NCBI GenBank assembly: GCA_963674965.2
Contig: CAXXFL010000001.1
Coordinates: 1-64,000, forward strand
DNA: 64,000 nt
Direction of reading: 5' to 3'
From: a bacterium
Lineage (GTDB): Bacteria; RBG-13-61-14; DATKZS01
Of this stretch, positions 140 through 23,665 are shown piece after piece. Made by a program: the position numbers and the translations under genes. Each line of letters opens with the position of its first letter. Positions within the stretch are counted from its first letter, which is position 1. Under the pieces are notes generated by a model, which worked only from the letters and a program-made list of their open reading frames with translations, made no database searches and was not told where the DNA came from.

Positions 140-3100
140 TCAATTCCAACAATACACAATCTTTCGAGGGGCGGCCAAGGGTGTCTTCTCGATCAGGTCG
201 ATTAGAGGCTCGTGCCCCTTCAGCTCGAACTTGACCTGGATGAAGTTTACTCCCAGGTTGTCCATTTCCATTTTATGGAGGGGGAAGTCCTGCTGAGTGA
301 ATATCTTGTCGCCGTTCCTGAAATCCATCAGGAATTTGGGAAATCCCGAGTAATGCGGATAGGTCTTGGTCAAGGTAAAGTCCCGAAACCTTATGTCCAT
401 CTTGACGCCGCCGCAAAGCTCCGGGTTCCATTTGAAGGACTGTTTTACCGGGTAGTTCAGGTTCTCGATGCGCTGTACCCCCTCGGAGCAGATCATCTCG
501 ACCACCACCGCCTCGGGCTTGGTCATGGCCCCGGCGTTGACGTCCGTCGGCAGCCCCTCGATGCCGACCTCATACTCGTCGAGCAGCATGTGTCTTCCCA
601 CCGAGCCCGCCGTCAGGAAGCTCTTGAACTCCGAGGAAAAGGGTATCTGCTCGCCGTAGGCCTGGCGCGCGTAATAGCCCCTGGGGTTTTTCGAGATGAA
701 GGGAGAGGCCGGTCCCTGGGCGAACTTCCAGACGATCCCGCTTTCCCCGAACATCTCGTTCTGAAGGGTCGCTCGCGGAACTCCCTCGAGCTCGGCCAGG
801 ACGCTTTCCTCCCACGAGCTCTGGAGGGCGCAGGCCGCGTCCATGCAGGTGTAGTAAAGAAGATTGCGAACGGGGCCCTCCATCAGGTCCCAGAAGACCT
901 GGTCGTCGCCGCGCTTGCTTCCCTTGTAGGACTTGAACTGCTTGACCGCCATGAAGCCGTCGTTAAAGGGAGACTTCGCCTTGCCCGGGTCGTCGCTCTT
1001 GAAAAGACCGGAGGCCATCTGGTAGGCCTTCTCTTTCGACTCGAGCGCGGGCGAGATATCCTGGAGGGCCTTCTGGTAGGCCTGGAGGGACTCCATGGCC
1101 TTGACGTGTCTTTGCACCTCGTCGCGGGCCTGTCCCGGGTCGCCCTTGAAGGCTCCCTCGGCGGCCTTCTCGAACTTCTGGGCGAAGCTCATGCCCTTTT
1201 CGAGGAAACCCTCCCGGATGACCTGCTGCTTCATGGGCTGGAAATCGACGACCAGCTTGACCCAGGCGGGCGCGTCCTTTTTGTTCTCGAGGTGCCCCAG
1301 CTCGTCGGCCATTTTGTCGGTGAACTCGAAATAGGGGTTCACGAAGGTGGTCATGGCCACGGACAGGTCCTGCCACTGGCGACGCGCTCGCTTGACGTCG
1401 TCCTCCTTGTCCCGCATCTTGTATTCTTCCTTGACGAAGTCCTCGGCGAAGCGGCGCCAGCTGGCGATGTACTCGTCCCCGTAGTAATCCTGGAAGGACG
1501 CGATCCTTCCCTCCATGTCCAGGGGGTCCCCGTCCTTTCTCGCGTTGGCCTCGGCCAGGGCCTTCTTCATCTGGCCGATGAAGCCCTCGATTCTCTCCTT
1601 GCCCTTCACCGTGTAGGCGGGCGGGACCATGATCCCCGTTTCCTCGGAGTCGTCTATCCGGTCGTACCAGAACTGGGCCAGGGTGACGGGCTCGAGTCCC
1701 TCCTCGCGGTTGGCCCACGCGATCAGCCACGGCATGGACTTGCCTTTGAGCTTGACCAGCTTGATCAGCATGCCCTCGAGTTTTTTCTTCTCCCTCTTTA
1801 TCTCCTCCCCGTCCACGCTCCAGTTGAGATAATACAGGTAAAGGGAGTTGAAGTTGGAGGCCACCGTCGGCAGGAGGGTGCTGTCGATTATCAGCACCAC
1901 CGCCGTCGAGGGCTGGGGCATCTCCTTTTGTTTCTCGATGGGGACCCCGTCGAGGTAAGCCTCGATAAGGTTGATCCGCTTCACCAGGTGCTCGGCGTAG
2001 TCGCCCACCACCTCGTTGGGCGTGGTCTCGTCCAGCGCGGCGATGCGGCTTCCCATCTCGTCGTCAATCCGCTCGAGCAACCCCTCGAGCCTGTCCTTGG
2101 CCCCCTTGTCGACCAGCGGCCTTCCCTCCTTGAAGAGGTTGACGTAGCGCTCCTTGAGCCCCTTCTCGACCTCCCTGCTCTGGTAAAGGCCCATCCTCGG
2201 GAGCCACCAGTTGGCGTTCAGGCCCTCGAGTTCCATGATCTGGGACCGGAAGGAGTCAAGAAGGATAATGTCCCTGGTCGCGTCGCGCACCATCTCGGGC
2301 GGCTTCTCGAACTTCTCGGTATAGGAATCGAGGGCGTTGTAGTTCTTGACGAAGGAGAAGAAGGTCAGGGCCACCGCCACCAGGGCCACTCCCATGACCG
2401 CGGCCGCTCCCAGGTAGCGGGTGGACCGCTTCCAGTTCATGTATTCCCTGAGCGGCGAGTACATGTAGCGGTCGTCGGGAAGGATTTTCGAGAAGAAGTC
2501 CTGGAGGAAAAATCCCCGGTTGGAGCCGGGAAGGTTCTCGTGCATCTCCCGGTTGACCCCGAGGGGAACGAGCATGTCCGACTTGGGCTGGCCCGCCTGC
2601 TGGGCGCTGGAGAAGAATATTCCGCGCAGCATGGCGGGTTCCTGGTAGGGGTTCTCCTGGAACGCTCCCTTTATGAAGGCCTCGAGCCCCGGCTTCAGTC
2701 TTTCGAACTCCTCCGGGAAAAGCAGCATGGCCGGGTCGGCGTTCTCGTTCTCGTGCAGGATAACGAGCTTCAAGTCCTTGAGCCTCTCGGTGATGGAGGC
2801 GAAGGTCTCGTCGATAAAGGTCTGGGTGTCGCGCTTGACGTTTCGGTTGACGTTGCCCATCCCCTCCTTGAAGGCCCGCCAGGGGAAGGCGCCGCAGAAG
2901 GAGTTCATGCCGGGGACCTGGTCGAGCTTGGTCACGAGGACGTAGACGGGGAACTTGGCGCCGAGGACCCTCATGACGTGGTCGATGGACTGGTTGACTC
3001 CCCGGCCGTACTGCTCGACGTCCTCTTTCCGGGCCGAGCGGAGCTTGTCGGCAGGGACCGCCACGACCACCCCGTTAATGGGCTCCTTTTTGCGGTAGCG

Positions 3101-3694
3101 CGAGAGGAGGGAGAGGAACTTTTTCCATTCCTCCTTGTTTTTTCCGTGGGCCGTGCCCATGGCGTATCTTCCGGCGGTGTCGAGCACCACGGAGTCGTCG
3201 AAGAACCACCAGTCCAGGTTGGTGGTGGCCGAGTCCCCCGGCGGGTGTCCCAGGTCGGGGAAACAGGAGGGCAGCCTCGAGTTCTTGAGGGCCGTGGTTT
3301 TTCCCGAGGACTGCTCGCCTATCATCAGGTACCAGGGCAGGGCGTAAAGGGGGTTTCCCCTTTTTTTGAGGCGGGACTTCTTGAGCCTGTCCACCGCCTC
3401 CCTGAACCTGTTCTCCAGGTCCTGGAGCTGGCGGGCCTCGAACATGGGCGTCCCGGCGGCGGTCTCCTGCTCGATCACCTGGCGGACGAACCCTTCCTCC
3501 CGCCGCCTGAACACCAGCTTCCTCACGAACAGGATCAGCCCGAGAACGGCCACGATCGAGCCCGGGATCACCAGGGATATCCACCAGGGCCATCCCAGTC
3601 TCGGACAAAGGTAAAAATAGGTGCCCAGCCCTATCGCCACCAGGACCGCGACGAACAGAGTCCACTTGAGTATTGTCCACAATATCTTCGTCAT
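140..3694 (-). CDS. tssM: T6SS membrane complex protein TssM (IcmF)
   Basis: 1184 aa; N-terminal TM helices, LYALPWYLMIG, Walker A GEQSSGKTT, DWWF, LDTAGRY, PINGVVV, FPVYVLVTKLD, LRGIFFSSA. Confidence 0.97.
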   Translation of the reverse strand: MTKILWTILKWTLFVAVLVAIGLGTYFYLCPRLGWPWWISLVIPGSIVAVLGLILFVRKLVFRRREEGFVRQVIEQETAAGTPMFEARQLQDLENRFREAVDRLKKSRLKKRGNPLYALPWYLMIGEQSSGKTTALKNSRLPSCFPDLGHPPGDSATTNLDWWFFDDSVVLDTAGRYAMGTAHGKNKEEWKKFLSLLSRYRKKEPINGVVVAVPADKLRSARKEDVEQYGRGVNQSIDHVMRVLGAKFPVYVLVTKLDQVPGMNSFCGAFPWRAFKEGMGNVNRNVKRDTQTFIDETFASITERLKDLKLVILHENENADPAMLLFPEEFERLKPGLEAFIKGAFQENPYQEPAMLRGIFFSSAQQAGQPKSDMLVPLGVNREMHENLPGSNRGFFLQDFFSKILPDDRYMYSPLREYMNWKRSTRYLGAAAVMGVALVAVALTFFSFVKNYNALDSYTEKFEKPPEMVRDATRDIILLDSFRSQIMELEGLNANWWLPRMGLYQSREVEKGLKERYVNLFKEGRPLVDKGAKDRLEGLLERIDDEMGSRIAALDETTPNEVVGDYAEHLVKRINLIEAYLDGVPIEKQKEMPQPSTAVVLIIDSTLLPTVASNFNSLYLYYLNWSVDGEEIKREKKKLEGMLIKLVKLKGKSMPWLIAWANREEGLEPVTLAQFWYDRIDDSEETGIMVPPAYTVKGKERIEGFIGQMKKALAEANARKDGDPLDMEGRIASFQDYYGDEYIASWRRFAEDFVKEEYKMRDKEDDVKRARRQWQDLSVAMTTFVNPYFEFTDKMADELGHLENKKDAPAWVKLVVDFQPMKQQVIREGFLEKGMSFAQKFEKAAEGAFKGDPGQARDEVQRHVKAMESLQAYQKALQDISPALESKEKAYQMASGLFKSDDPGKAKSPFNDGFMAVKQFKSYKGSKRGDDQVFWDLMEGPVRNLLYYTCMDAACALQSSWEESVLAELEGVPRATLQNEMFGESGIVWKFAQGPASPFISKNPRGYYARQAYGEQIPFSSEFKSFLTAGSVGRHMLLDEYEVGIEGLPTDVNAGAMTKPEAVVVEMICSEGVQRIENLNYPVKQSFKWNPELCGGVKMDIRFRDFTLTKTYPHYSGFPKFLMDFRNGDKIFTQQDFPLHKMEMDNLGVNFIQVKFELKGHEPLIDLIEKTPLAAPRKIVYCWN

Positions 3695-3732
3695 TTGCCG
3701 CCCTACGCTGTCTTTGCCGCCTTCATCGCCGA

Positions 3733-4395
3733 CTAGAGGATGCCGCCCGCCATCTTGTCAAGAATCCCGCTGAAAACGATAAAGGCCGCCGCCGCGCTTC
3801 CCGCCGCCGCCGCCGCCACGCCCACCGCGAAGGGAACGACGCTCCAGTCCACCCGCCTCCTGGCTTTTTCCCGCTCCGATATGTAGGAGCCCGGAAAGAA
3901 CCTGGCCTCCTCGGAAATATAGGGGTTCGAGCCTATGTCCAGAATCCTGGCCAGGGCCTGGTCCCCCACCTTGTCCAGGTCCTCCAGGGACCTGACCGCG
4001 AAATACCTGCCGCTGAACCCGAGCACCAGGCACGCGCAATAGACCTCCATCACGCGCCCTCCGTCTTCCCCCAGCCTTCCCAGCCGCTCGAAGAACTCAA
4101 CGCCCGCGTTGGTGGTATGGTAGTACTCCCTTTGAAGCTGCCGGTCCTTCCAGCTTTCCTTCTCGCTCCAGCTCGAGAGCAGGATGACCTCGTCCACCCA
4201 GGCGCAGACGGCGAACTTGGCGCTATCGAAGTCGGGCTCGGCGAACCCGGCCTCCTTGGCCAGCCTCTGGGCGTTCTCGAGCAGAAGCTCGATCTCCCTC
4301 CGGAAGACGTCGAAGGGCGGATGGCTCTCGGAAAGGCGCGACATGGAATAGGCCACGTACGAAACCGGGCCGGAAAAACAGTCGAGCAGCCTCAA
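3733..4395 (-). CDS. tssL: T6SS protein TssL (DotU family), no OmpA domain
   Basis: AKFAVCAWVDEVIL, W...LQ..Y..TTNAGVEFFERL, EVYCACLVLGFSGRY and a C-terminal TM helix; located between tssK and tssM. Confidence 0.95.
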   Translation of the reverse strand: MRLLDCFSGPVSYVAYSMSRLSESHPPFDVFRREIELLLENAQRLAKEAGFAEPDFDSAKFAVCAWVDEVILLSSWSEKESWKDRQLQREYYHTTNAGVEFFERLGRLGEDGGRVMEVYCACLVLGFSGRYFAVRSLEDLDKVGDQALARILDIGSNPYISEEARFFPGSYISEREKARRRVDWSVVPFAVGVAAAAAGSAAAAFIVFSGILDKMAGGIL

Positions 4396-4396
4396 G

Positions 4397-5788
4397 TCAC
4401 GACCTCCTCATCACGATCACCTCGGCGATAAGGTCCTCGGGCGCGGCGTTCCAATGCAGGGCGATGTTCCCGTCCCTTCTCACGTCGTCCCACTGGGTGC
4501 CGGACAGGTCGATCCTGAAGTAGGAGGCGTTGCCTATCTGGGGCAGGCCGGGGGGAGGCACGGGCAGATACTCGAGGACCAGGCCCGGCAGGGCCCTCGA
4601 GATCAGGATGGGCAGGTTCTCCTTGGCCGAGAGCTTGCTCACCGAGCCGATGGCGTCCACCACCTCGGCCTTGTCCAGGTCCGTCCTCAGCGACAGGTAA
4701 TAAACGTTCTTGTCGCTGAACACGGCCGGCTCCATCTCTCCCTGGTAGTACTGGTCAGCCAGCTCGAGCTTGATGATCGCCTCGGGACCGTAGGTGATAT
4801 CATCCAGCAGCCGGCTGATGAGCTTGTGCAGCCTCGAGTAGCTGTACTCGAGGTCCAGGTGCTTGTAGGGGGGGACAACCTTGGCCCCCGTCACGTCCTC
4901 GCCCGTGGCGCTCATGGTCTGGGAGAAGGTGGTCAGCTCGCCCACCATCTGCACCAGCACCTCGTACACGTTCCAGGGGTGGACCTCCCTGGTGTCCATC
5001 ATGTGGTGGAGCCAGAGGGCGTAGCGCGAAAGCGTGCGAAGGCCCATGAGAAGGAAGAAAACGCCGCCCTCGATCTCGCCCGAGCGCATGCCCCTCGGGC
5101 TCTTGTATTCCTCGAGCCGGCGGCAGCGGGCGCTCAGCTTGTCGTAAACGTCCTTGATAAGGCCCATGAGCTGGGGGGCCGAGTCGATCCGGAGGGAGGG
5201 CGGGATAAAGCGGGCCGACAGCCTGACCTTGTCCTCCCCCGCCTCGAGCACCGCCGCGGGAATGAGCACGTACTTGCTCAGCTCGTCCTTTTCCGACTCC
5301 CAGAATATGCGGGGAACGTAGCTCAGGCGCTTGACCTTGGCCTGAGGACCGTCCTGGTAGAGGTCGGCCACGTCCTCGGGGTCGGAGGTGGTCACGAACC
5401 GCGAGGTTATGGCGCCCACGTCCTCCAGGCTCGAGACCTCGGTCACGTTGTCCGAGGCCTGGTCGAGCTTCTTGAGACCGAGGAACACCTTGAGAGGACG
5501 GCCGCCCTCGAGGGGCGCGTCCTCGAGCGACCGGCTCCGGATGACGCCGTTCCCGGGAAAGGTCACGTAGGTCCCGTCGGGAAAAACCAGCTCGGCCTCG
5601 TCGATGGCCAGCATGCCGTTCTCCAGGGACTCGGCGTTAAAGGTCAATGAGCTTACGCCCCACATGTACGGGTTCGCGAACTTGGCGAAGGGCGTCAAGA
5701 GCGACTGGTGGTACATGTCGGAAAGCTGGAAATGCTGAGGCTGAAGAAACAGTCCCTGGTGCCAGAAAATGGGTCGTTGATTTTTCAC
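4397..5788 (-). CDS. tssK: T6SS baseplate subunit TssK
   Basis: IFWHQGLFLQPQHFQ start, FIPPSL, HPWNVY..L, PPYKHLDL, ALPGL..L..PP motifs; GTG start. Confidence 0.96.
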   Translation of the reverse strand: MKNQRPIFWHQGLFLQPQHFQLSDMYHQSLLTPFAKFANPYMWGVSSLTFNAESLENGMLAIDEAELVFPDGTYVTFPGNGVIRSRSLEDAPLEGGRPLKVFLGLKKLDQASDNVTEVSSLEDVGAITSRFVTTSDPEDVADLYQDGPQAKVKRLSYVPRIFWESEKDELSKYVLIPAAVLEAGEDKVRLSARFIPPSLRIDSAPQLMGLIKDVYDKLSARCRRLEEYKSPRGMRSGEIEGGVFFLLMGLRTLSRYALWLHHMMDTREVHPWNVYEVLVQMVGELTTFSQTMSATGEDVTGAKVVPPYKHLDLEYSYSRLHKLISRLLDDITYGPEAIIKLELADQYYQGEMEPAVFSDKNVYYLSLRTDLDKAEVVDAIGSVSKLSAKENLPILISRALPGLVLEYLPVPPPGLPQIGNASYFRIDLSGTQWDDVRRDGNIALHWNAAPEDLIAEVIVMRRS

Positions 5789-5791
5789 CGC

Positions 5792-6394
5792 TTACTCCAG
5801 TGTCTGTTGGATTTCCTCGGGACCGAAATAAAAGCGGACCTCGAGCTTGTCGGGCACGGCCGTGTGTTTCCGGATGAAAAAGCCGCTCTTCTCGATCCTT
5901 ACCGGGACCAGGACCAGCTTGGAAACGTGTCCCGGCCATAAATTGTAGTATCCAGCCACCACCCCGAAAAACCTGGCGTCCTCGGCCCGGTCGAAAACGA
6001 TGGTCTCCTCGTCCCCCGGGTGGACCACCAGGGGCTCCGAGCTGGCCACGCTCTCGTCGAAGCGCTGGCACTCGAGGAGCTTGATCACGCCCTCCCGGCT
6101 GGCCTTGAGGTCGTTGAAGGCGTTGGGGTCGATAAGCTGGTACATGCACACGAAAAGGGTGTGGGCCTCGTCGTCGTGGACGTTAAGGTTGGGGTCGGCC
6201 CGGTAGGTCATCTTGATGCCCTTGGCCTGGAAGGGCCATTTCTCCAGTTCCTCTATCTTTTTGGCGCAGGAGAAAACCGAGGCCAGGGCGAGGGTCAACA
6301 TCACGGCCAGACCGCGAGCCAAGGGCCTGGGGGCCTTGCCGCCAAGAAGGATGGTCAGTTTTTTCGGCGTTCTCATTACAACGTTTTTAGCCAT
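5792..6394 (-). CDS. tssJ: T6SS lipoprotein TssJ
   Basis: Lipobox-like LASVFSC, ADPNLN, MYQL...F, DRAEDARFFGVVAGYY. First gene of the tssJKLM run; ATG 6394 chosen for its upstream GAGGAAGG. Confidence 0.9.
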   Translation of the reverse strand: MAKNVVMRTPKKLTILLGGKAPRPLARGLAVMLTLALASVFSCAKKIEELEKWPFQAKGIKMTYRADPNLNVHDDEAHTLFVCMYQLIDPNAFNDLKASREGVIKLLECQRFDESVASSEPLVVHPGDEETIVFDRAEDARFFGVVAGYYNLWPGHVSKLVLVPVRIEKSGFFIRKHTAVPDKLEVRFYFGPEEIQQTLE

Positions 6395-7071
6395 CGATCC
6401 TTCCTCGTTCACGTCGCGAGGGCCATGGACCGGACGCTTAAAGATCGATCGCGCGTCCTTTCCCTCACTTATATCCGCCAGAGCGCTTCCACTTGAGCAT
6501 ACGCCTAGGGCCGAAAACCCGGCCAGTGTCGCCGCCGGACTCGGGGGTCCTTTAAAAGGTCGTTTTTAAGTTATATCCTTTCCGGTCCGAAGATATGAAG
6601 TCAAAATACTACCAGGCCGGTTACCCCATGCTCTTCTTCCCGCTACCCATGAACCAATAGGGGAGCGGCGCGAATCGCCGCAATTCCCGAAACTATTCAA
6701 AATGCCATGAGTATTGTTTTGCGGTTCACGTTCCGGCGAACTTCAGCGGTAGCGTGGGGCTTGAGGCGCGTTGTCAGCTTGGGGCGCGTACTTCGTGGAA
6801 CTTTGACAAAGCCGGAACATGTTTCCACGCAAATTTAATATGGCGACTATATACCAACGCGCCCAAAGAATCAAGGACAAATTTAACAAATTATTTTGAA
6901 GATCGAACAAGGGAAAAAGTCTTTTCGCTTTTTTCGGCCATTTCGGTTTTATTCCCTCCAGCCTTGTGTTATTATTCCCCCAGACCCGCCCGCCGGACCT
7001 CCAGAAACAAGGCGCGGCGCGGGAACCGACGCCGCCCATCCTCGCGGCGATCCGACCAAGGAGAAGTTCGC

Positions 7072-8087: not shown

Positions 8088-8278
8088 TTTTCAGCGCCAT
8101 GACATAGTTTACACCTTGTGCCACAACATGGTTTACACTTTCGGCATCTTGATCTTTGTTTTGGAGGTGATTGGGATGCCGTGGAAAGAGGTCGACATCC
8201 ATGATAAGTCTCTGTCAAGGGGAGAGGGAGGCTCCCCGTTCTTCGACGATTTATCCGCTGATCAACTCATGCTATCAT
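8088..8278 (+). mobile_element. IS481-family left-end remnant with the first codons of a transposase
   Basis: Direct repeats ACATAGTTTACAC (8102-8114) and ACATGGTTTACAC (8126-8138), then GGAGGT and ATG 8176 encoding MPWKEVD, a typical IS481 transposase start. No recognisable continuation; right boundary inferred from the coaD break. Confidence 0.7.
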
Positions 8279-8696
8279 CCTCCTTGATCAGGCTGGAGGA
8301 CAAGTGCGAATAGCATCCCTCGGTCATCATGAACAGGGTCTCGACCGCGGGCTTCATCTGGCGGTTGGTATGGGCCATGGCTATCTCGTACTCGAAGTCG
8401 GTGGTGTTGCGAAGTCCGCGCAGCAGGATGCCGGCGCCCTTTCCCTCGGCGTAGTCCACGAGCAGGCTCTTCTTAAAGGAGTCGACCTTGACGTTCGAAA
8501 GGCCCTTGGGAAGGATTTTCCTCCAAAGGTCAAGACGCTCCTCGGTGGAGAACACGTAACGCTTGCTGGTGCTGTCGGCCACCGCGATGATGACCTCGTC
8601 GAAAATGGCCGCCGAGCGGGACACGATGTTAAGGTGCCCAAGGGTCGGGGGATCGAAACTCCCCGGATACGCCGCTATTACCTTCTTCTTAGCCAA
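8262..8696 (-). pseudogene. coaD: Phosphopantetheine adenylyltransferase, C-terminally truncated or interrupted
   Basis: YPGSFDPPTLGH, LRGLRNTTDFEYE, ETLFM, SSSLIKE. Homology stops there and DDSMS* follows instead of the usual ~20-residue tail. TTG start at 8696 after GGGAGGGAG. Confidence 0.85.
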
Positions 8697-8990
8697 TACT
8701 CCCTCCCGCGCCGATCGATTCAAGACCAGTTATTCTATGAAAAAACGCGAGAAGACGCAACAAAAAAGCGTGCCAAGGCACGAACCTTGGACCATGCTCT
8801 ATTGTTTATCGATATATGCAAAAGTAATAAGAAAATCGAGCCATCAGGAGAAACTGAAATCTTATCGCCAACATTGCAGAGCATAACACGCCGTTATTAC
8901 AAGTGATTTTCTCCAATTTGCGCGTTGACTTTTTATCCCTTTTCTGTTCTATATACTTTATTGAGATGAATCCATCCCAGGAGGTCTTGA

Positions 8991-9625
8991 ATGAAGGATT
9001 TTAAGAGCCTTGGTGTCCTTTTTCTGGTTGTTGCTTCTGTCCTGCTTCTTGGGCAAACTCAATCCTCCGTACCGCCGACCATTTACTATCAGGGAAGAAT
9101 TGCCGATGATTATGTCTCTCCCGTTGAGGACGGCGAGTTTGAATTTTATTTTCTTATCTTTGACGCCGTTTCCGGTGGTGACTTGCTTTGGTCTGAATCT
9201 CAGCCCGGGGTTGCGGTTTCAGGGGGTCTGTATAAGGCTAACCTTGGGGCCGTGGAGCCTATTGAATTCTCCATTTTCAATGGCAAAGATGCTTATCTTG
9301 AAGTCCGTGTGTTTGGGAAGACGCTTGGGCCAAGGGCCAGGGTCGTTTCCAGTCCTTTTGCTCTCAAGGTGGAGGGCGAGGTTCCGGAAGGAGCGATTAT
9401 TCTGAGCGAGCTTAGCGGTGACACGGCCATAACCAACTTTGGCTTTACCGAGCAGGGAAGTACTATAAACTCTTATTATTTGTATAAAAAAGACGCTTAC
9501 AATCCCTCACGGCCTCGCGTTCCCCAAAGGATTTTATACCAAGGACGATTGCTTCCGGCGGATGGAGGCACGGTTGGAAGCACGGCAAATTTCACTTTCT
9601 CCATATATGACGCGGACACCGCCGG
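8991..9625 (+). pseudogene. Secreted protein with tandem 'YQGR' domains, truncated in the second repeat
   Basis: GGAGG RBS and signal peptide; PPTIYYQGRI...FLIFDAVSGGDLLWSE, then VPQRILYQGRL...[10 protein letters not shown], which breaks off. The ORF continues to 9719 through unrelated sequence. Visibly AT-richer than its flanks. Confidence 0.7.
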
Positions 9626-9706
9626 TATCCGCCCGACAAGCAAGAGGCGGCGACCAAGACGGTCATCGAACAGGCGGAGTTGTTGTCAGCGGATTGGGCG
9701 GGTTAA
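9626..9706 (+). pseudogene. hsdR: 3' terminal fragment of type I restriction endonuclease subunit R
   Basis: An alternative frame reads [26 protein letters not shown], matching the HsdR C-terminus I recall as [15 protein letters not shown] (DUF3387). Confidence 0.8.
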
Positions 9707-10077
9707 GACGCTAATATGAAGATATTTCTTCCCAGCTATTCTATGGTGAAACTTGCTTTGTGTGGTAGCTATTTAGCGCTCCCCGTAGTATGAACTTTTA
9801 AAGAAAAATAAGTATATTCTTCTTTCCTTCCACCCTCCTGTACCCGAAAGAATCATGACCGGAGGACCGAGCGGACGAGGGACGGAGGGCGCAATTATTT
9901 CGGGTCAATCCCCTGACGGAAATATGAAAAAGCTTCTCCATATCTCCGTATCCCTCCACCCATCTATTCGAGGTCAAGAGATCGTAAGCATCACGAGGCG
10001 GTCACCACCGTTCCGTCCGCCATTCTTTCCTTATAGAGTTGCCTATGGTACGGCGTTAACTGGCAAAGACTAGGAAT

Positions 10078-10451
10078 TCACTTGCTCGCCTTTACCATGG
10101 CCACAATCCCGGCCCGGACGGCCTCGGGGAGGTCGTTCCATTTATCCACTACAAGGGAAAGGTCGGCGTCCAGGACGGCGCGTCCCGGCCCCTGGCCGCT
10201 CATGTCCTGGCCCTGGCCGTGGTCCTCTCCTGGCCGGGGAAGGCCCGGTTTATTGTATACCGTACTGGATACCGTTCCGGGATTGTTCCGGGATTTTTCT
10301 TTCCGCGACGGGTTATCAAGCTGTACCCCATCTGTCCGGGCGCAATTTGCGACGCCGCCTAATTCATCGGTAAGGCTCGGATATTGTATTGGATTTTCGT
10401 CTTTTTGTCCGGGGTTGTCCTGAATTTGTCCGGTCTCGAAATTGCTGGAAA
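10078..10451 (-). mobile_element. Possible att-adjacent relic of an integrative element downstream of tRNA-Val
   Basis: Open frame continuing out of the tRNA 3' half and ending DADLSLVVDKWNDLPEAVRAGIVAMVKASK, a peptide type I recall from integrase tails and tRNA att sites. Confidence 0.45.
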
Positions 10452-10527
10452 TGGTAGGCACGTGGGGATTTGAACCCCAGACCCCTACCGCGTCAAGGTA
10501 GTGCTCTCCCAACTGAGCTACGTGCCT
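10452..10527 (-). tRNA. tRNA-Val(GAC)
   Basis: 76 nt; acceptor AGGCACG/CGTGCCT, D-arm TAGCTCAGTTGGGAGAGC, anticodon arm CTACC-TTGACGC-GGTAG, T-loop GTTCAAATC, encoded CCA. Confidence 0.97.
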
Positions 10528-10540
10528 AGGTACAGATAGT

Positions 10541-10568
10541 AGTATGCCTCAATAACCGGAATTGTCAA
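10541..10568 (-). promoter_or_regulatory. Sigma70-type promoter of tRNA-Val
   Basis: TTGACA-N16-CATACT ending 13 nt upstream of the tRNA. Confidence 0.6.
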
Positions 10569-10691
10569 GCCCCGGAAGGTTGGACGGACGGTGGGATCAG
10601 CCGGCGGGAGGGCCGGGGGATTGGGGCGCGAGAAGAGGGCGAGGCGCCGCCGGGCGCTTGGAGGCGGGGCGGCGCCTTGGCGGTTTGGTGA

Positions 10692-11309
10692 CTATTTCTT
10701 TTCTTTCTTCCGAGGGAGGTCGCCGGCCGTTTGGGGCTCGGCGAGGACGTCGCCGGTCACGGTGTTCATGGTCTTGTTGGCGAAGCCCATGATGGTGATC
10801 ACGGCCAGGACGTCCCTTCTTTCCTGCTCGTTATAGTTGGCCTCGAACTCGGCCACCACCTCCTCGTCGGGGAACTCGCCTCGGAAGAGGGCGTAGTCCC
10901 GCACCCAGGCCAGGGCCGCCCGCTCGCGGGGGTCGAAGTCCTCGGGGTTGAGATCGACCAGGGAAAGTATCTCCTCGTCCGTGAGTCCCGCCTTTCTCCC
11001 GAACTGGGAGTGGGCCTGGAATCACCCCACGCAGTGGTTGTTGATGGTCAGGGTAAGGCAAAGCTTCTCGCGGAAGGCCGGGTCTATCCAGCCCATGTCC
11101 ACCGGGCCTCCGTTCAGGCGCTTGAAGAGGATGATGTTGTTCACCTTGCCATAGTGCTTGAGGAAGTCGCCCGCCCCCTCGAACTTGGGATGATTGACGC
11201 TGACGCCGAAGTTGTTTTGGGTGGGGGCCTTTTTCGCCGCGCAACCCGTAAGGACCAGGATAGCCGTCCCTACAAGCCCCAAGAGACTTTTCAATTTTAT
11301 GCCGGTCAT
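10692..11309 (-). CDS. AhpD/CMD-family selenoprotein with lipoprotein signal (Sec at 11022-11024; 205 aa)
   Basis: ORFs 11022..11357 and 10692..10904 are in one frame, split by a single TGA. Read-through gives IDPAFREKLCLTLTINNHCVG-U-FQAHSQFGRKAGLTDEEI, matching the AhpD CxxCxxxH motif. GGGAGG RBS, lipobox LTGC, SECIS-like hairpin. Confidence 0.88.
10990..11015 (-). promoter_or_regulatory. Bacterial SECIS-like hairpin
   Basis: GCC-CA-CUCCC-AGUUC-GGGAG-AAA-GGC. The apical loop follows the UGA after 16 nt and has a G in its first two positions followed by U. Confidence 0.72.
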
Positions 11310-11387
11310 GATGACGCCTCCCGATAAAAATATAACCTCATGGCGGGCAAATGGCAATCGTTTTTTTTCGCTCGCGCCCGGCCTCGC

Positions 11388-11837
11388 CTAGCGGGCGGCC
11401 AAACCCTCGATGGCGGTCTTCCACTTTTCCTCGTCGGACACGAAGAAGCCGACCCTGGTTCCATCCTGGAGGTGCAGGACCAAAACCTTTTTGCCCGCGA
11501 CCCAGTTACCCAGAAAGGATTTTTCCACGGTCACTTGACCGATCTCATAGGCCCCGAGCCGGATGACGTTCTTTCCCACCAGGGGATGGAAGGTCAGCCC
11601 TCCTCGAGCAAGGTATATTACACCGTTGCATTTAATCCTTCCGAACCTCGCGGTGGAGCCTCGAAAGCTTCCGCTTTCCGGCGCGATAATGGTCCCGCCG
11701 GGATCGAGACTTATCTCCTCCTCGATCTTGCGCCGAATTTTTTTGGATTTGCCGGCAAAAAAATACAAGAGGGCCCCGATCGTGAAAAAGAGGGCCAAGA
11801 AAAGTAAGACTACGGGAAAGACAACGGTTAAGGCCAT
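11388..11837 (-). CDS. Membrane-anchored hypothetical protein (possibly PH-like beta domain)
   Basis: AAGGAA RBS, N-terminal TM helix, CNGVIYL..GGLTF and RVGFFV.D.EKW pattern. Confidence 0.65.
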   Translation of the reverse strand: MALTVVFPVVLLFLALFFTIGALLYFFAGKSKKIRRKIEEEISLDPGGTIIAPESGSFRGSTARFGRIKCNGVIYLARGGLTFHPLVGKNVIRLGAYEIGQVTVEKSFLGNWVAGKKVLVLHLQDGTRVGFFVSDEEKWKTAIEGLAAR

Positions 11838-12250
11838 GGCGATTTCCTTTGCTTGACGCGTTCTATCGCCCGGATTTTCCGGACGTCCTCCTCGATGTCC
11901 CTCACGGTGAGGCCTCCGCATATAAATATACACTCTGACGGGCAAATCTCAATAGGCAAGCCTGGCCAAAAACCAAGCCTAGAATTGGCCGTGACGGAAA
12001 AAACGCGGCAAGCGTCCGGCTTTTTTCGCCAGGAATGAAAATATTTTTCGTCTTTTACTACTAAATATGCTATCTTCTTGAGATCATCACGCCGCGGCGG
12101 GGAGCTATTTAACCTTGGAGCGGCCGTCGGCGGTTTTGAAAACCCACGGGAAAAGAGATTGCGACTCTGAAAAAATGTCGATTTTACCTTGCTTTAAGAA
12201 AGTCGATATAGTAATTTCGATCTAATGAAAGGTTCAAGGAGGAAAGAAAT

Positions 12251-12757
12251 ATGAAATGTCCATCTTGCGGAGCGGACAACGCTGACGGCAACATCATGTG
12301 CACGAACTGCGGCAACTCGCTCGAGGGGACCCAGCAGGCCCAACAACCGGCTCAGCCGGCCCAGCCCGCCCCTCCCCCCGCGCAACAGGCCTACGCTCCC
12401 CAGCAGGGCGGCTACGCCCCGCCGCCTCAGGGCGGGTACCAGCAGCAGGGCGGATACCCGCCGCAGGGAGGGTTCCCGCCGGGCGGGGGCATGCCCGCGG
12501 GCCAGCAGGTGCCCAACTACCTGGTCATGGCCATCCTCTCGATTTTCTGCTGCTGGCCTTTGGCCATCGTGGCCATCATCTTCGCCACCCAGGTTAACTC
12601 GAAACTGGCCATGGGCGACGTGGCCGGGGCCATGGACGCCTCGAAAAAGGCCAAGCTTTTCTCCATGATCGGAATAGGAATCGGCGTGGCCTTCACGTTG
12701 CTTTATATTATCCTCATGGTGGTGGGAATGGTCGCCGGTGGGATGCAGAGCTATTGA
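12251..12757 (+). CDS. CD225/dispanin-family protein with N-terminal zinc ribbon
   Basis: CPSC...CTNC, P/Q/G-rich linker, VPNYLVMAILSIFCCWPLAIVAIIFATQVN...GD..GA..AS.KAK. Confidence 0.92.
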   Translation: MKCPSCGADNADGNIMCTNCGNSLEGTQQAQQPAQPAQPAPPPAQQAYAPQQGGYAPPPQGGYQQQGGYPPQGGFPPGGGMPAGQQVPNYLVMAILSIFCCWPLAIVAIIFATQVNSKLAMGDVAGAMDASKKAKLFSMIGIGIGVAFTLLYIILMVVGMVAGGMQSY

Positions 12758-12843
12758 TCGGCCTTGATTATTGCATGATATTGCCCGCTCCGCGGCGGGC
12801 TTGAAAGGGTATTGGCGTTAACCAATCAGCAAGGAGGGAATGA

Positions 12844-13215
12844 ATGGATCGTTTGACTGGAAGTGGTAGAGGATTATCCAACAGGACAGAGATGGGAGCT
12901 CCTCCTCCCGGCCAGCCGGGCATGCCCGGCCCGGGAATGCCTGGAGGGGCCCCGCCGGCCAGCGTGCCCAACAACCTGATACTGGCTATCCTGGTCACGT
13001 TGTTCTGCTGTCTGCCGGGCGGGATAGTGGCCATTGTTTTCGCCACGCAGGTCAATTCCAAACTGGCCGCCGGCGACGTGGCTGGGGCCATGGACGCCTC
13101 GAAAAAGGCGAAAATGATATCTCTTATCTCCGCGGGTATCGGTCTCGCCTTTATAATCATTTACGTGATTTTAATGGTGGTCGTCGGAGTCGGCGGAGGC
13201 ATGTCGTCCTATTGA
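12844..13215 (+). CDS. CD225/dispanin-family protein
   Basis: AAGGAGG RBS; VPNNLILAILVTLFCCLPGGIVAIVFATQVN. Alternative start at 12892. Confidence 0.9.
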   Translation: MDRLTGSGRGLSNRTEMGAPPPGQPGMPGPGMPGGAPPASVPNNLILAILVTLFCCLPGGIVAIVFATQVNSKLAAGDVAGAMDASKKAKMISLISAGIGLAFIIIYVILMVVVGVGGGMSSY

Positions 13216-13242
13216 TCGTTACCGTTCCCTTTTGGGAGTGAT

Positions 13243-13632
13243 ATGAACAACTTCAACGGTTCGAAACCATTTTCGGGAGTATCGTACCAGCCGCCCGGCC
13301 CCCCTTACGGGCCGGGCGGGTACGCTCCCCCTCCCATGGGTTATCCGGGCCAACCCATAATCCTGCCGCCCGTCAACAACCATCTGGTGTTCGCCATCAT
13401 GGTCACTATTTTCTGCTGCCTGCCCGGCGGGGTCATCGCCTTAATCTACGCCTCTCAGGTCAACGGCAAACTGGCCATGGGCGACTACAACGGCGCCATG
13501 GCGTCCTCGCGGAGCGCCAACTTCTGGTGCTGGCTGTCGGTGATACTGATGGGCCTGGTTTACGCGGCCATGGGGGTTTTCTACGGGATAATGATTCTGG
13601 TGGCCATCCTGTCCGAGTCCGGGGGCTACTGA
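13243..13632 (+). CDS. CD225/dispanin-family protein
   Basis: Pro-rich N-terminus; NNHLVFAIMVTIFCCLPGGVIALIYASQVN...GDYNGA..SS.SA. Confidence 0.9.
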   Translation: MNNFNGSKPFSGVSYQPPGPPYGPGGYAPPPMGYPGQPIILPPVNNHLVFAIMVTIFCCLPGGVIALIYASQVNGKLAMGDYNGAMASSRSANFWCWLSVILMGLVYAAMGVFYGIMILVAILSESGGY

Positions 13633-13674
13633 TCCAAAGACGCCAAACCGCGAGGGCGCGAAGGGCCGGGTAAA

Positions 13675-14046
13675 ATGGGCGATCCTTACGACGGGTCATG
13701 GCAGGGCAAATACCACCTCTCGGGCCAGACTAACCCTTACGGACCGGGCCAGGCATATCAAGAGCCTTTGCCGCCGGTCCAGAACTACCTGGTCTTCGCC
13801 GTGCTTGCCACTCTTTTCTGTTGTCTGCCCCTGGGAGTGGTGGCCATCCTCTTCGCCACCCAGGTCAACACCAAGCTGGCCCAGGGAGATTATTTCGGAG
13901 CGGTCAAGGCCTCGAACAACGCCAGGAACTTCTGCCTTATCTCGGCGGGGGTCCAGGCCGTGATCTACCTCATTACCATCATCATCTACGTGGCTTACGC
14001 CATTTTCGCCTACGGGATCATTTCCGATTTGACCGAGACGATATGA
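13675..14046 (+). CDS. CD225/dispanin-family protein
   Basis: QNYLVFAVLATLFCCLPLGVVAILFATQVN...GDYFGA..AS.NA. Confidence 0.9.
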   Translation: MGDPYDGSWQGKYHLSGQTNPYGPGQAYQEPLPPVQNYLVFAVLATLFCCLPLGVVAILFATQVNTKLAQGDYFGAVKASNNARNFCLISAGVQAVIYLITIIIYVAYAIFAYGIISDLTETI

Positions 14047-14134
14047 GCGGCAAGACGGAAAGGAGGTGGACTTCCCACATTTTGAAAAACTTGGGATATA
14101 CGGCTCGTGGCGATCTGCATACGAATCTCGGGCC

Positions 14135-14353
14135 AAAGCCCGAAGGGCTTTAACATGAATAGCCGTAGGCGCCAGCCTACGGGAAGCGTGGCCGGTAATT
14201 TCTTACCCGCCCCCGAAGGGGGCGAACCTTGCCGGGCGTCGGCAATCCAGGTCGCCGGTGGTCCGGCCCATTCAGGGCCGAAGAACATTTTAAAAGCCAT
14301 CCTTTCCGTAGGCTGGCGCCTACGGCTATTCGAATTTTCCCCCTTCGGGGGAA
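14135..14353. repeat. REPIN/MITE-like palindromic element
   Basis: Perfect 26-bp inverted repeat GAATAGCCGTAGGCGCCAGCCTACGG (14157-14182 and 14306-14331), plus short CCCGAAGGG / CCCTTCGGG hairpins outside and between the arms. Confidence 0.75.
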
Positions 14354-14461
14354 GACGGCTACGTCCGTTTCAGCGGCGTCGGCGGCCGACTGATCGAGGA
14401 GGCAACGGTTGATTTTCACTTCGAGCGGCGGACAACTTGCCGGATAAAAAAGGAACCAAGA

Positions 14462-14890
14462 GTGAAACGGTCAAAATTGGGGGAAGTTCCGGGAAAGGAG
14501 AAGCTGAAGGCGGCGGCCGTCCTCTTGGTGGCGTTTTGTTTCGCGCTGGTCCTTTTCTTTTTCAAGCCCGGCTCGGGCGGGATATATCCACCCTGTCCCT
14601 TCCACGCCCTGACGGGTCTTTATTGTCCCGGGTGCGGCACTCTCCGCGGCCTTCACCAGCTTCTGCACGGCCATTTCTGGGCGGCCCTGGACTATAACCC
14701 CCTGATGGTGCTGTCCCTTCCCTTTATCGGATATTACCTGGCCTCCCAGGTATCGATACTAACTCGCGGCCGTCCCCTCAAGGCGTACTTTTACCCGGTC
14801 TGGCTGATCTGGACCATATTTTACGTCATCATCGGCTACTGGGTTATCCGTAACCTTCCCTGGTTTCCCTTTACATATCTTGCGCCTTGA
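14462..14890 (+). CDS. DUF2752 domain membrane protein
   Basis: PPCPFHALTGLYCPGCGTLRGLHQLLHG...A..YNPL and C-terminal WVIRNLP. Confidence 0.9.
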   Translation: MKRSKLGEVPGKEKLKAAAVLLVAFCFALVLFFFKPGSGGIYPPCPFHALTGLYCPGCGTLRGLHQLLHGHFWAALDYNPLMVLSLPFIGYYLASQVSILTRGRPLKAYFYPVWLIWTIFYVIIGYWVIRNLPWFPFTYLAP

Positions 14891-20411: not shown

Positions 20412-22121
20412 CTACCTTATTTGGGTGGGTCCGGGCATGACCGCCAGTTTGGTCCCGGCCTTCCACAGCCCCCTGAACCTCACGGCCTCCAAGAGGGACC
20501 TCTCCTCGGGCGTCAGGAAGTGGGAGGCCGCCCTTTCCTCGATCCTTCCCGTCAGTATCTTCCACAGCGTGACCTTTTCCCGCTTGTATACCAGGTTCAC
20601 GTCCTGTCCCGCGGGCACGGAAAGAAGCTTCTTCATCTCGTCCACCGCCGCGTCGAAGCCGCCCACCCGGTCCACCAGGCCGATCTCGAGCGCCTGATGT
20701 CCGGTCCAGACCCTTCCCTTTCCGATCTCGTTGACTTCCTCCTCGGTCATGGAGCGTCCCTGCCCCACCCTGCTCAGGAAAAGCTCATAAAGGGACGAGA
20801 TACTATCGCGGACCTTTTCTCTTTCCGCCTCGGTTAACTTTTTATTGATGGTACCCATGGTCGAGTATTGTCCTCTTCCCATGTTCTCCGTTCCCACCTG
20901 TATCTTTTCCAGGAGCCGGCCCAGGCTGAGGTGGGCCGTGAGTATGCCGATGGACCCGGTTATAGTGCCAGGCTGGGCCACGATCTTGTCCGCCCCGCAG
21001 GATATGTAATAGCCGCCCGAGCCGGCCACGTCGGACATGGAGACCACTATGGGCTTCTCCTTTTTCATCCGCTGCGTCACCCTCCAGATGAGGTCCGAGG
21101 CCAGGGCCGAGCCGCCTCCCGAGTCCACCCTGAAGATGACCCCGTCGATGTCCTCGTCGTTCATCACCTTGAGCATTTCCTTGACCATGTCGTCCGAGGC
21201 GATCATCTGGCGGCTGAAGAAACCGCCCGGCTCCTCGCCGGTCACGATGGGACCGACGCCGTAGATGACCGCCACCTGAGGCTCCTTCGAGAACTTGTTT
21301 TTATTGGAGGTAATGGACTCGAGATACCAGTCCTCCGAAAGCACCTCGGGTTTTCCGCCCGAAAGTTCCGTGACCACCTCGTCCAGGTACCTGGTTCCGT
21401 CCAGTGCCCCGGCCTCGATATATTTCTCGGGAATGAACCAGGCCGAGTCGATCCAGTTCCCGACCTCCTCCGGCGCCACGCCCCGCCCGTCGGCTATGTC
21501 ATTAACGAGCTGGGAATACACGTCGTCAAGGATGGAGTTTTGCACCTCGCGCTCGGCCTCGGACATGTCCCGCCTGGAAAGCATGTCGGCGAAGGACTTG
21601 TATTCCGCGATCTGGTCCACTTCCATGTCAACGTATATCTTGTCCCACAGCCCGCCCAGATAAAAACGGAAAACGGATGGGCCCGTGAGCTCGAGCTGGG
21701 AGGCCGGAGATATGTAAACCTTGTCGCAAGCCGAGGCCACGTAATACTCGACGTTGCCGCCGCCCTCCAGCTCTAGGTAGGCGTGGATGGGCTTGTCCGT
21801 CATCGACTGGTATCTTTTAATCGCGCTCCTGAACTCCTGGGCCTTGCCCAAACCATACTCGGCCGAGGCGATCTTAAGCACCACGGCCTTGACGTCCTTG
21901 TCCCGGGCCGCCGCCTCGAGTATCCGGACCTTGTCCAGGACCGTGGGCGTGTATTCCTCGAACAGGCTCATAAACGCGTTAAAGGAGGTTACCTCGGGAA
22001 TCTCGCCGCCAAGATCGAGAAGAAGCACGCCGTCTTTGGGCATATGGGGACGCCGGGCGGCCGTCAAACCGCAAAGAGAAACGATTAAAACGAACATGAC
22101 CGCGAGTTTTGTTTTTTTCAT
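20412..22121 (-). CDS. sppA: Signal peptide peptidase SppA (tandem S49 domains)
   Basis: YYVASACDKVY, EYKSFAD, RVDSGGGSALASD, SMSDVAGSGGYYIS, TITGSIG, GRVWTG.QA..GLVD. Confidence 0.95.
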   Translation of the reverse strand: MKKTKLAVMFVLIVSLCGLTAARRPHMPKDGVLLLDLGGEIPEVTSFNAFMSLFEEYTPTVLDKVRILEAAARDKDVKAVVLKIASAEYGLGKAQEFRSAIKRYQSMTDKPIHAYLELEGGGNVEYYVASACDKVYISPASQLELTGPSVFRFYLGGLWDKIYVDMEVDQIAEYKSFADMLSRRDMSEAEREVQNSILDDVYSQLVNDIADGRGVAPEEVGNWIDSAWFIPEKYIEAGALDGTRYLDEVVTELSGGKPEVLSEDWYLESITSNKNKFSKEPQVAVIYGVGPIVTGEEPGGFFSRQMIASDDMVKEMLKVMNDEDIDGVIFRVDSGGGSALASDLIWRVTQRMKKEKPIVVSMSDVAGSGGYYISCGADKIVAQPGTITGSIGILTAHLSLGRLLEKIQVGTENMGRGQYSTMGTINKKLTEAEREKVRDSISSLYELFLSRVGQGRSMTEEEVNEIGKGRVWTGHQALEIGLVDRVGGFDAAVDEMKKLLSVPAGQDVNLVYKREKVTLWKILTGRIEERAASHFLTPEERSLLEAVRFRGLWKAGTKLAVMPGPTQIR

Positions 22122-22348
22122 TGAAGTTCCCTCCTTAAATTTTGCCGCCAACTTGCCTCCGGCGGTATTTAAACCCTTCCTTTTTTTCCGTCCTCGCCCC
22201 GCGCCGCAAGAAAATCAAGCGCCCGGGCCGCCGGAAACAATTGCGAAAGGCGCCTATGGATAACAATTTATCTCTTTAATAAGGACCGTTTCTCCAGTTT
22301 CAAGGTCCTCACTCGATATAATAGCAACCTTTGGGCCAAAGGGTCCCT

Positions 22349-23665
22349 TCAGTCGGTCTCGATCTCATCCCTGAACCTTTTTATTTCATCAAGGGCCCGG
22401 CGGGCCATTCTCTCCTTGCGGTCTTTTTTCCGGAGCCTCTCGGAAAGCGGCTCGAGGACCCCGAAGTTGGCGTTCATGGGCTGGAAGTTAATAATCGACC
22501 GGTCCGTGACGTAGGCCATGAGCGCCCCCATCACCGTGGTCCGGGGCGGAAGCTTGGGCGCTTTTCCCTGCAGCCTTCTTATAACGCCGAGTCCGGCCAT
22601 CATCCCCGAGGCAGCGCTTTCGAGGTATCCTTCTACTCCCGTGATCTGGCCGGCGAAAAAAACGCGGGGCAGTTCCCTAAGAGAAAGGTCGGCGGACAAC
22701 AGCTTGGGCGAATTAATATAGGAGTTACGATGCACGCTTCCGAGCCTCGCGAACTCGGCCCTCTCCAGGCCGGGAATCATGCGGAACACCCTTTCCTGCT
22801 CGGGCCAGGCCAGCCGGGTTTGAAACCCCACCATGTTGTAAAGGCCTCCGGCCGCGTCGTCCTGCCGAAGCTGGACCACGGCGTGGGGACGAAGGCCCGT
22901 TCGGGGGTCCGTAAGTCCCACCGGCTTGAGCGGTCCGTGGGCCAGGGTGTCCACGCCCCTCTCGGCCATGGTCTCGACGGGAAGGCAGCCCTCGAAGTAT
23001 CTCGGGTCCTCGAACTCCCGTAGGGGCGTCCGCCTGGCCTCGATCAGGGCGGTGATAAAGCCTTCGTATTCGCGCCGGTCCATGGGGCAGTTGATATAGT
23101 CGTCGCCGCCCTTGCCGTAGCGGGAGGCGCGGAAAGCCACGCTCATGTCCACGCTCTCGGCGGTCACGATGGGGGCGATGGCGTCGTAAAAGGCCAGGGA
23201 CCCGGCCCCGGTAAGATTCGAGATAGCCTCGGCCAGGGCGTCCGACGTGAGCGGACCCGAGGCCACCACCACCACCCCGCCCGGTATTGACTTAATCTCC
23301 TCCCGCTCGATCTTCACCGCCTCCAGGGACTCGAGGCTATCGGTGATATGGCCCCCGAACCTTTCCCGGTCCACGGCCAGGGCCCCGCCGGCGGGCACGC
23401 GGGAAGCCCGGGCCGCCTTCATCACTATCGAGTCGAGCGCCTCCATCTCGGCCTTGAGGACGCCCGAGGCGTTGTCCAGCGAGTCGGACTTGAGAGAGTT
23501 CGAGCAGACCAGCTCGGCCAGGAGCCCCGTCTTGTGGGCGGGGGTCATGCTTGACGGGCGCATCTCGAAAAGGCGGACCGCTATCCCGGCCTTTCCCAGC
23601 TTCCAGGCCGCCTCGCATCCCGCGAGGCCCCCTCCGATTATCGTTACGGCTTTGTCGTCGGACAT
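22349..23665 (-). CDS. trmFO: FAD/folate-dependent tRNA (uracil-54) methyltransferase
   Basis: GGGLAGCEAA, AELVCSNS, VPAGGALAVDR, YFEGCLPVE, GPLKPVGL, YNMVGFQT, FFAGQITGVEGY, FQPMNANFG. Confidence 0.98.
   Translation of the reverse strand: MSDDKAVTIIGGGLAGCEAAWKLGKAGIAVRLFEMRPSSMTPAHKTGLLAELVCSNSLKSDSLDNASGVLKAEMEALDSIVMKAARASRVPAGGALAVDRERFGGHITDSLESLEAVKIEREEIKSIPGGVVVVASGPLTSDALAEAISNLTGAGSLAFYDAIAPIVTAESVDMSVAFRASRYGKGGDDYINCPMDRREYEGFITALIEARRTPLREFEDPRYFEGCLPVETMAERGVDTLAHGPLKPVGLTDPRTGLRPHAVVQLRQDDAAGGLYNMVGFQTRLAWPEQERVFRMIPGLERAEFARLGSVHRNSYINSPKLLSADLSLRELPRVFFAGQITGVEGYLESAASGMMAGLGVIRRLQGKAPKLPPRTTVMGALMAYVTDRSIINFQPMNANFGVLEPLSERLRKKDRKERMARRALDEIKRFRDEIETD

Follow-up and report, generated by a model that had tools for sequence, protein, structure and literature searches.

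A gene split by annotation at an in-frame TGA very likely encodes one selenium-containing AhpD-family enzyme with a predicted lipoprotein signal and a candidate donor chain

The stretch of bacterial DNA analysed here (64,000 nucleotides; the window) carries two open reading frames (ORFs), 11022-11357 and 10692-10904, that share one frame. Does this locus contain two gene fragments or a single gene whose TGA is translated and, in the latter case, where would the product act and what would reduce it? An earlier examination of the letters and ORFs (the sequence-only reading) had proposed that the two ORFs are divided only by the TGA at 11022-11024, and that gene callers would split what is one hidden selenoprotein gene. 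Both ORFs were found, on the minus strand (a strand that reading had not named), and ORF calling with translation table 11 does split the gene into these two parts. Read through its single in-frame TGA, the gene (10692..11309, minus strand) runs over 205 codons from an ATG at 11309 to a TAG at 10694-10692 and would encode an AhpD/CMD-fold (seleno)lipoprotein of 205 residues. The TGA (11022..11024, minus strand) corresponds to predicted selenocysteine 96, the second position of a CxxU motif that begins with C93 (NHCVG-U-FQAH). A reading of the same interval on the plus strand was rejected because its frame is meaningless.

The start codon is preceded at a distance of 7 nt by a Shine-Dalgarno-like GGGAGG (11317..11322, minus strand), and purine-rich sites also precede the equivalent start codon in relatives. 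A sigma-70-like promoter (TTGCCA-17-TATATT, 10/12; 11329..11357, minus strand) is a consensus match only, and the region 10450-12300 holds 5 such sites compared with 0.7 in shuffled sequence. A cytoplasmic isoform made from an internal start was considered and rejected, as codons 24-55 include no in-frame ATG, GTG or TTG. The sequence-only reading had been staked on the TGA not proving to be TGC or TGG; contigs from two sequencing runs (X1 and X2) show no other letter at 11022-11024 and zero differing letters over 10600-11450, both runs being of one sample, possibly the source of the window, and so not independent.

The neighbours of the gene in the window, namely an upstream membrane-anchored ORF (11388-11945), a tRNA-Val and a CD225 array, were not found conserved beside its relatives. 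The array consists of four tandem similar small membrane proteins, the first of which scored as CD225, followed by a DUF2752 gene (12251-14890, plus strand). The tRNA-Val gene (10452-10527, minus strand) is accompanied by a downstream ORF without a Pfam match (10078-10512), a secreted-protein ORF that seems truncated (8991-9719) and a coaD-like ORF (8262-8723); judged by eye, the region 8262-10527 may form the boundary of an integrated element. Type VI secretion genes tssJ, tssK, tssL and tssM were recognized with Pfam at 140-6412 (minus strand). In four relatives (L015, L021, L024 and L026) trmFO directly follows the selenoprotein gene, but in the window trmFO-sppA (20412-23665, minus strand) lies on the same strand 9-12 kb upstream of it, which suggests that a local rearrangement may have occurred.

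The protein matches the Pfam CMD family (PF02627) with 38.3 bits against a cut-off of 23. In its predicted structure a disordered tether precedes a bundle of helices; the mean pLDDT is 78.4, with low values at residues 1-7, 22-37 and 188-205. The best solved structures retrieved by Foldseek were all AhpD-like, with PA0269 first, SMU.961 of S. mutans and AhpD of S. pneumoniae among them, and the debrominase Bmp8 lower (sequence E 0.00096, fold E 2.8e-3). The codons for the AhpD proton relay, E81 (11069-11067), C93 (11033-11031), U96 and H100 (11012-11010), span 11010..11069 (minus strand), and their spacing equals that of PA0269 (E36/C48/C51/H55) and M. tuberculosis AhpD (E118/C130/C133/H137), as given in PMC3141380. 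All four residues are invariant in 23/23 aligned rows, and E/C/C/H is likewise present in 21/21 rows of Cys forms. At the place of the fifth relay residue (His132/Tyr50) the window protein has Gly95; this position is variable across the family, and it also falls outside the invariant set of deinococcal AhpDs.

With the AhpD core profile TIGR00778 the window protein scored 24.9 (cut-off 27.8) and two of its Cys orthologs, P0005 and P0006, scored 29.2 and 27.9; the profile matches all 23 aligned members at E 0.01. Scores of the window protein remained below the curated cut-offs for the AhpD-type selenoproteins NF041047 (12.3/110), NF053654 (19.2/310) and TIGR01926 (19.9/81.8), NF041238 and NF041537 gave no match to it, and the ESM Atlas returned only generic CMD clusters, under 0.9. 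Gamma-carboxymuconolactone decarboxylase, which is described as being without CxxC and the relay residues (PMC3141380), was rejected as an identity for a protein in which CxxU and these residues are present.

A word-indexed protein search for relatives yielded only 2 N-terminal halves, and a single-protein scan of genome contigs gave no match; an alignment-based scan succeeded. Four of the 40 related genomes contain 5 full-length matches with one TGA apiece, and scans with an alignment of the full-length genome matches produced 5 genome loci and 22 metagenome loci. After duplicates and three near-duplicates had been removed, 22 distinct relatives (30-63% identity) remained. The DNA scans, for which Sec members served as seeds, under-sample Cys forms; Cys proteins came from a protein library search, whose three best matches, P0005-P0007, are full-length CxxC proteins. 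P0005 groups with the window protein within 11 rows (support 100/94).

The window's clade comprises 13 distinct Sec members and its sister clade 5, and a more distant clade C is represented by 5 loci (L037-L041). Clade C proteins are CxxU AhpD-like, with a short basic/hydrophobic N-terminus that lacks Cys and differs from that of the window's clade, a different hairpin past the TGA and, often, a C-terminal Cys pair or Cys. In L008, L024, L025, L026 and P0143, CGGG-U (CxxxU) replaces CxxU, the SECIS spacing being unchanged. One genome (G001) carries a 35-codon C-terminal remnant of the enzyme gene (G001:C11:11619-11717; L013, L084), whose N-terminal part was not found there, and retains two selA copies.

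TGA occupies the Sec column in 22/22 metagenome loci and 5/5 genome loci, and Cys in orthologs P0005-P0007 and 93 more distant full-length matches. Among the best 150 protein-library matches, 96 are full-length with CxxC; 11 terminate precisely at the Sec column. The sequence-only reading, which had placed the TGA on the second Cys of the AhpD CxxCxxxH motif and had been made conditional on Cys in homologs, is confirmed on both points: the motif is C93/U96, and the column holds TGA or Cys in the relatives.

A hairpin noted in that reading is also present, with its loop beginning 16 nt past the UGA. This putative bacterial SECIS element (bSECIS; 10983..11021, minus strand) consists of an upper stem CUCCC/GGGAG (11010-11006 and 11000-10996), a loop AGUUC (11005-11001) and a short lower stem. 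Published bSECIS criteria specify a 3-9 nt loop, a 4-16 bp stem and G[G/U] early in the loop, together with a distance of 16-37 nt from the UGA and a minimum folding energy of at most -7.5 (PMC13188914); the element, with its 5-nt loop, 5-bp stem, 16-nt distance and -15.8 kcal/mol, agrees with all four. Taken alone, the folding energy is a weak to modest sign: the 40-nt fold has z -1.89, with 10/200 shuffles as good, and longer folds are unremarkable (60 nt, z -0.96; 100 nt, z -0.71). Furthermore, 2672 of the 167,543 TGA triplets of the genome (1.6%) have a comparable stem, counted as at least 5 Watson-Crick pairs with a G[G/U] loop 16-22 nt downstream.

The codons that form the stem are frozen across 18 distinct members (TCC 18/18, GGG 18/18, AGA 16/16), compared with 28 other conserved 4- or 6-fold sites, where the top codon has a mean share of 0.55 and a maximum of 0.85, and the Ser and Gly encoded by the stem are kept in only 6/96 Cys relatives. 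This choice of codons is the decisive sign for selenocysteine. No covariation was seen in the upper SECIS stem, because it is identical in 18/18 members and never varies.

The absence of sel genes had been named as a finding that would overturn the sequence-only reading; the complete set was detected in the window's genome (G000, 97.6% complete). The selA, selB and selD genes score above curated cut-offs and tRNA-Sec was identified by ARAGORN. The first two are clustered with tRNA-Sec (C4:210035-213490), and selD, itself with a TGA, lies on C1. Across 13 genomes of the phylum, selA is above cut-off in 7, including all 5 with a full-length enzyme gene. The cytochrome c maturation gene resB (system II) is located directly upstream of selA-selB-selC (G000:C4:208636-213490) and, by coordinates, also adjoins selA in G001, G002 and G004. 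UGA96 is almost certainly read as selenocysteine, inserted by SelB, and the gene split by annotation is very likely one selenium-containing AhpD-family redox enzyme.

The N-terminal lipoprotein signal recognized in the sequence-only reading was borne out and is conserved across the clade. The predicted signal peptide (residues 1-22, with lipidated Cys23 encoded at 11243-11241; 11241..11309, minus strand) has an n-region of net charge +2, an uncharged h-region, the lipobox LTG-C23 and Ala at +2. Signal peptides were predicted for 12/13 members of the window's clade, 9 of them with a Cys after the h-region (strict pattern in 6, near-canonical by eye in 3) and 3 without; one member is signal-less. 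A lipobox Cys after the h-region is also present in P0005 and P0006. Signal peptides occur in 0/5 members of the sister clade, and a hydrophobic N-terminus in only 5/96 full-length CxxC relatives, three of which are the best matches, P0005-P0007. Predicted export is therefore a trait of the window's branch, with signals in this clade and P0005-P0007 and rarely elsewhere, and predicted lipidation is not essential to the family: the Cys is missing from three clade members that have a signal, and a fourth has lost the signal altogether. Of the lipoprotein-processing proteins, Lgt, Lnt and LolA score above cut-off in the window's genome. It is highly probable that the enzyme is exported; the sequences thus support the exported, membrane-tethered Sec redox enzyme envisaged earlier, both export and Sec insertion being predictions.

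All-against-all comparison of 25 loci revealed a single conserved upstream neighbour, a protein with the thioredoxin fold, a CRxC motif and a hydrophobic N-terminus. Its gene lies upstream in 9/12 signal-bearing members and is adjacent in 8; the spacing is a stop/start overlap in five loci, 3 nt in two and 48 nt in one, and in one locus a gene intervenes. It was not found upstream in the other three signal-bearing members (the window, L021 with 814 nt of sequence, and L023), in any of 6 signal-less members (0.4-4.9 kb examined) or in any of the 4 clade C loci for which upstream DNA was available. The thioredoxin is of the Thioredoxin_2/_7 type (ResA profile 16.4 bits vs 170), and the hydrophobic N-terminus is present in all 10 aligned sequences. 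An extra Cys pair is complete in 6/10 and wholly lacking in 4/10; the two residues always occur together, as would be expected for a structural disulfide.

In the window's genome, neither the thioredoxin nor ccdA is adjacent to the enzyme gene, which speaks against a relay between them, and ccdA was found beside the enzyme gene in none of the relatives' loci. An ortholog of the exported CRxC thioredoxin (48-53% identity to the nearest) is nevertheless encoded elsewhere in this genome (G000:C2:693152-693712), and 125 nt past its end lies the only ccdA copy (G000:C2:693838-694587; 249-aa product). This pair could serve cytochrome c maturation (heme attachment), since the genome also encodes ResB, a CcsA-like protein and 17 ORFs (of 6924) with two or more CxxCH. 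When P0005, a Cys ortholog from another species, took the place of the enzyme in a complex prediction with the thioredoxin, the score was 0.15 against a mark of 0.32.

The 13 phylum genomes, which are kin and partly incomplete (87-97%), so that the counts are neither a statistical test nor independent events, include 13 with ccdA, 11 with resB, 5 with the thioredoxin and 4 with the signal-bearing enzyme, all four within those five. In the fifth (G004) a contig ends inside the thioredoxin gene. The genome with the 35-codon enzyme remnant (G001; 97% complete, selA and resB present) has no thioredoxin ortholog, and another (G011) has a signal-less enzyme and no thioredoxin. Because of this co-occurrence, the thioredoxin appears to track the exported enzyme rather than cytochrome maturation. 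Gene order and co-occurrence make a donor chain from CcdA through the thioredoxin to the enzyme probable.

The sequence-only reading had also suggested a periplasmic selenol system. This suggestion has to be narrowed, as the partners found (the exported thioredoxin and CcdA) are Cys proteins. An envelope system of several selenoproteins was not found: by eye, no signal peptide is apparent in the other candidates from the genome (PrxU, SelD, a formate dehydrogenase recognized by motif, a flavin disulfide reductase, and SelW-like and Prx-like proteins), in a scan that is incomplete and missed selD itself. A further candidate selenoprotein, of 67 residues, was also observed (G000:C3:521254-521454, plus strand; L078:755-955), in which two hydrophobic segments flank GCHGG-U-G. 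A hairpin of 7 bp with a GUU loop occurs 20 nt past its TGA, and the protein has no Pfam or NCBIfam match.

Considering these data together, we lean towards a dedicated selenium-based reducing pathway of the envelope, leading from CcdA to the exported CRxC thioredoxin and on to a lipid-anchored AhpD-fold selenoenzyme. The further proposal that this enzyme reduces envelope peroxides and is recharged by CcdA via the exported thioredoxin is tentative. SelB would read the in-frame SECIS and insert Sec96; export of the precursor, attachment of lipid to Cys23 and cleavage would follow. Residues 24-37 would then form a flexible tether that holds the all-helical domain on the periplasmic side, perhaps at the outer membrane, as the +2 residue, which governs lipoprotein sorting, is Ala and LolA is present. 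By homology, Glu81 and His100 would form the AhpD relay beside Sec96, whose selenolate would attack ROOH, with Cys93 resolving the product to a selenenyl-sulfide; in M. tuberculosis AhpD the second Cys (Cys133) is the attacking residue. Electrons would pass from cytoplasmic thioredoxin to CcdA and the exported CRxC thioredoxin, which would reduce the Cys93-Sec96 bond. CcdA and the thioredoxin would thereby replace the lipoamide donor of classical AhpD; the lipoamide system that reduces M. tuberculosis AhpD is cytoplasmic. We infer Sec insertion, export, partnership and substrate alike, and the substrate is the weakest step. PA0269 has a weak Cys-dependent peroxidase activity (0.16 uM/min; PMC3141380), but AhpD-fold proteins are weak peroxidases, adaptors or a debrominase, which counts against the peroxidase reading.

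It is possible, though doubtful, that the same exported selenoprotein and donor chain act instead as a disulfide reductase or adaptor, passing electrons to envelope proteins with oxidised cysteines, to apo-cytochrome CxxCH motifs or to another peroxidase. M. tuberculosis AhpD serves AhpC in this manner (PMC3141380, PMC8945050), and the system II maturation genes, the 17 multi-CxxCH ORFs and the position of resB directly upstream of selA would all suit such a role, as would a crude inspection by eye in which none of the 16 WCxxC ORFs of the window's genome was an evident signal-bearing ResA. However, resB (11/13) and ccdA (13/13) occur in genomes that have neither enzyme nor thioredoxin, so heme attachment does not need these two proteins, and no exported peroxiredoxin gene is conserved beside the enzyme-thioredoxin pair.

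Other small-molecule chemistry in the envelope, such as Bmp8-like reductive dehalogenation or the reduction of reactive chlorine, sulfur or selenium species, is an unlikely function of the exported selenoenzyme. Such reactions also require a thiol donor and Bmp8 is among both the sequence and the fold matches, but it is outranked by PA0269, S. mutans SMU.961 and S. pneumoniae AhpD, and no pathway gene is conserved beside the pair. It is about equally improbable that the selenoprotein is real and its link with the thioredoxin is historical, with recycling by other means, or that an uncleaved anchor holds a domain facing the cytoplasm. The separation of the pair in the window's genome, the lack of the thioredoxin beside 3/12 members and the kinship of all carriers fit a historical link, against which stand the stop/start overlaps in 5 loci, the joint loss in G001 and the absence of the thioredoxin beside all 6 signal-less members. 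As to an uncleaved anchor, the Cys-free hydrophobic N-terminus of clade C is set against a lipobox Cys that is conserved while the h-region varies freely. Finally, that the TGA is a true stop, in a pseudogene, between two fragments or through an assembly error, would agree with the two ORFs of table 11 and the modest hairpin energy but is hardly credible in view of a TGA shared by 22 distinct relatives, with identities as low as 30% and coding conserved on both sides, the frozen SECIS codons, the Cys orthologs and the full sel machinery.

To our knowledge, catalogues have listed AhpD-like selenoproteins since 2005, but neither a function nor a donor is known for them. If the proposed relay from CcdA through the thioredoxin to the selenoenzyme is true, it would represent the first extracytoplasmic branch of AhpD, the first AhpD supplied by CcdA/thioredoxin rather than by lipoamide and a candidate third kind of envelope terminal enzyme beside peroxiredoxins and Msr. 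The function of the family and the advantage of Sec in an oxidising envelope become testable through this clade, which provides a location, a donor chain with named candidates and, as natural controls, lipoproteins with Sec or Cys and signal-less Sec sisters. Annotation is corrected as well, the 11 truncated proteins among the best 150 database matches being N-terminal halves cut at the Sec codon. The finding has a narrow range, a small lineage of uncultured organisms, and none of its components is without precedent.

CxxU AhpD-like or CMD-like selenoproteins are catalogued in PMC1088965 (Sargasso Sea), PMC9312934 and PMC13188914, the last with rows for TIGR01926, PF02627, NF041047 (GSU3128), NF041238 and NF041537. 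The window protein resembles these CxxU families (including NCBIfam NF053654) in its AhpD/CMD core, Sec as the second residue of CxxU and in-frame bSECIS; unlike them, it has a lipoprotein signal and a coupled exported thioredoxin, and it scores below the curated cut-offs. It is set apart by profiles and descriptions, and in the accessible portions of PMC1088965 and PMC13188914 no mention was found of a signal, lipoprotein or periplasm for CxxU families. With PA0269 (2O4D, 2IJC, 7XW1) and S. pneumoniae AhpD (6E8L) it shares the all-helical fold (TM 0.75 over the target, 20% identity), and with these two and M. tuberculosis AhpD the Glu/Cys/Cys/His spacing. It differs from the AhpD peroxidases in having Sec for the second Cys, Gly at His132/Tyr50 and an export signal, and M. 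tuberculosis AhpD is reduced by the lipoamide system (PMC8945050/PMC3141380).

Precedents for Sec outside the cytoplasm, or linked to DsbD-like carriers, are provided by the exported proteins of the SAO system (10.1101/2022.07.06.499078) and by the TsoB rhodanese/DsbD fusion and DsbA- and DsbG-like selenoproteins (PMC13188914, PMC1088965); their folds are unrelated and none is AhpD-like. Neither an exported AhpD-type enzyme nor this donor wiring for the family was found in the literature searched, which covered few subscription papers, and the supplements of selenoproteome surveys may list these sequences without comment. We conclude that the locus holds a real, hidden selenoprotein gene, which adds a new form, predicted to be exported and provided with a candidate donor chain, to the AhpD-like selenoproteins.

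The CcdA-Etrx-MsrAB system of S. pneumoniae, as described in PMC3914529, is similar in being a lipoprotein-based extracytoplasmic redox defence with thioredoxin-fold partners; it differs in its terminal enzyme, a methionine sulfoxide reductase with neither Sec nor the AhpD fold. In the ScsB-TlpA-PprX pathway of Caulobacter, envelope peroxide is handled by a carrier, a thioredoxin-like protein and a thiol peroxidase (PMC3322552). The arrangement proposed here from genes likewise has a membrane carrier, an exported thioredoxin-like protein and an exported terminal enzyme, but the carrier is a 249-aa CcdA and not ScsB, the thioredoxin is of the Thioredoxin_2/_7 and not the TlpA/ResA type, and the terminal enzyme has the AhpD fold and predicted Sec instead of the peroxiredoxin fold of PprX. 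The proposed relay would thus work like ScsB-TlpA-PprX but is not a member of that system.
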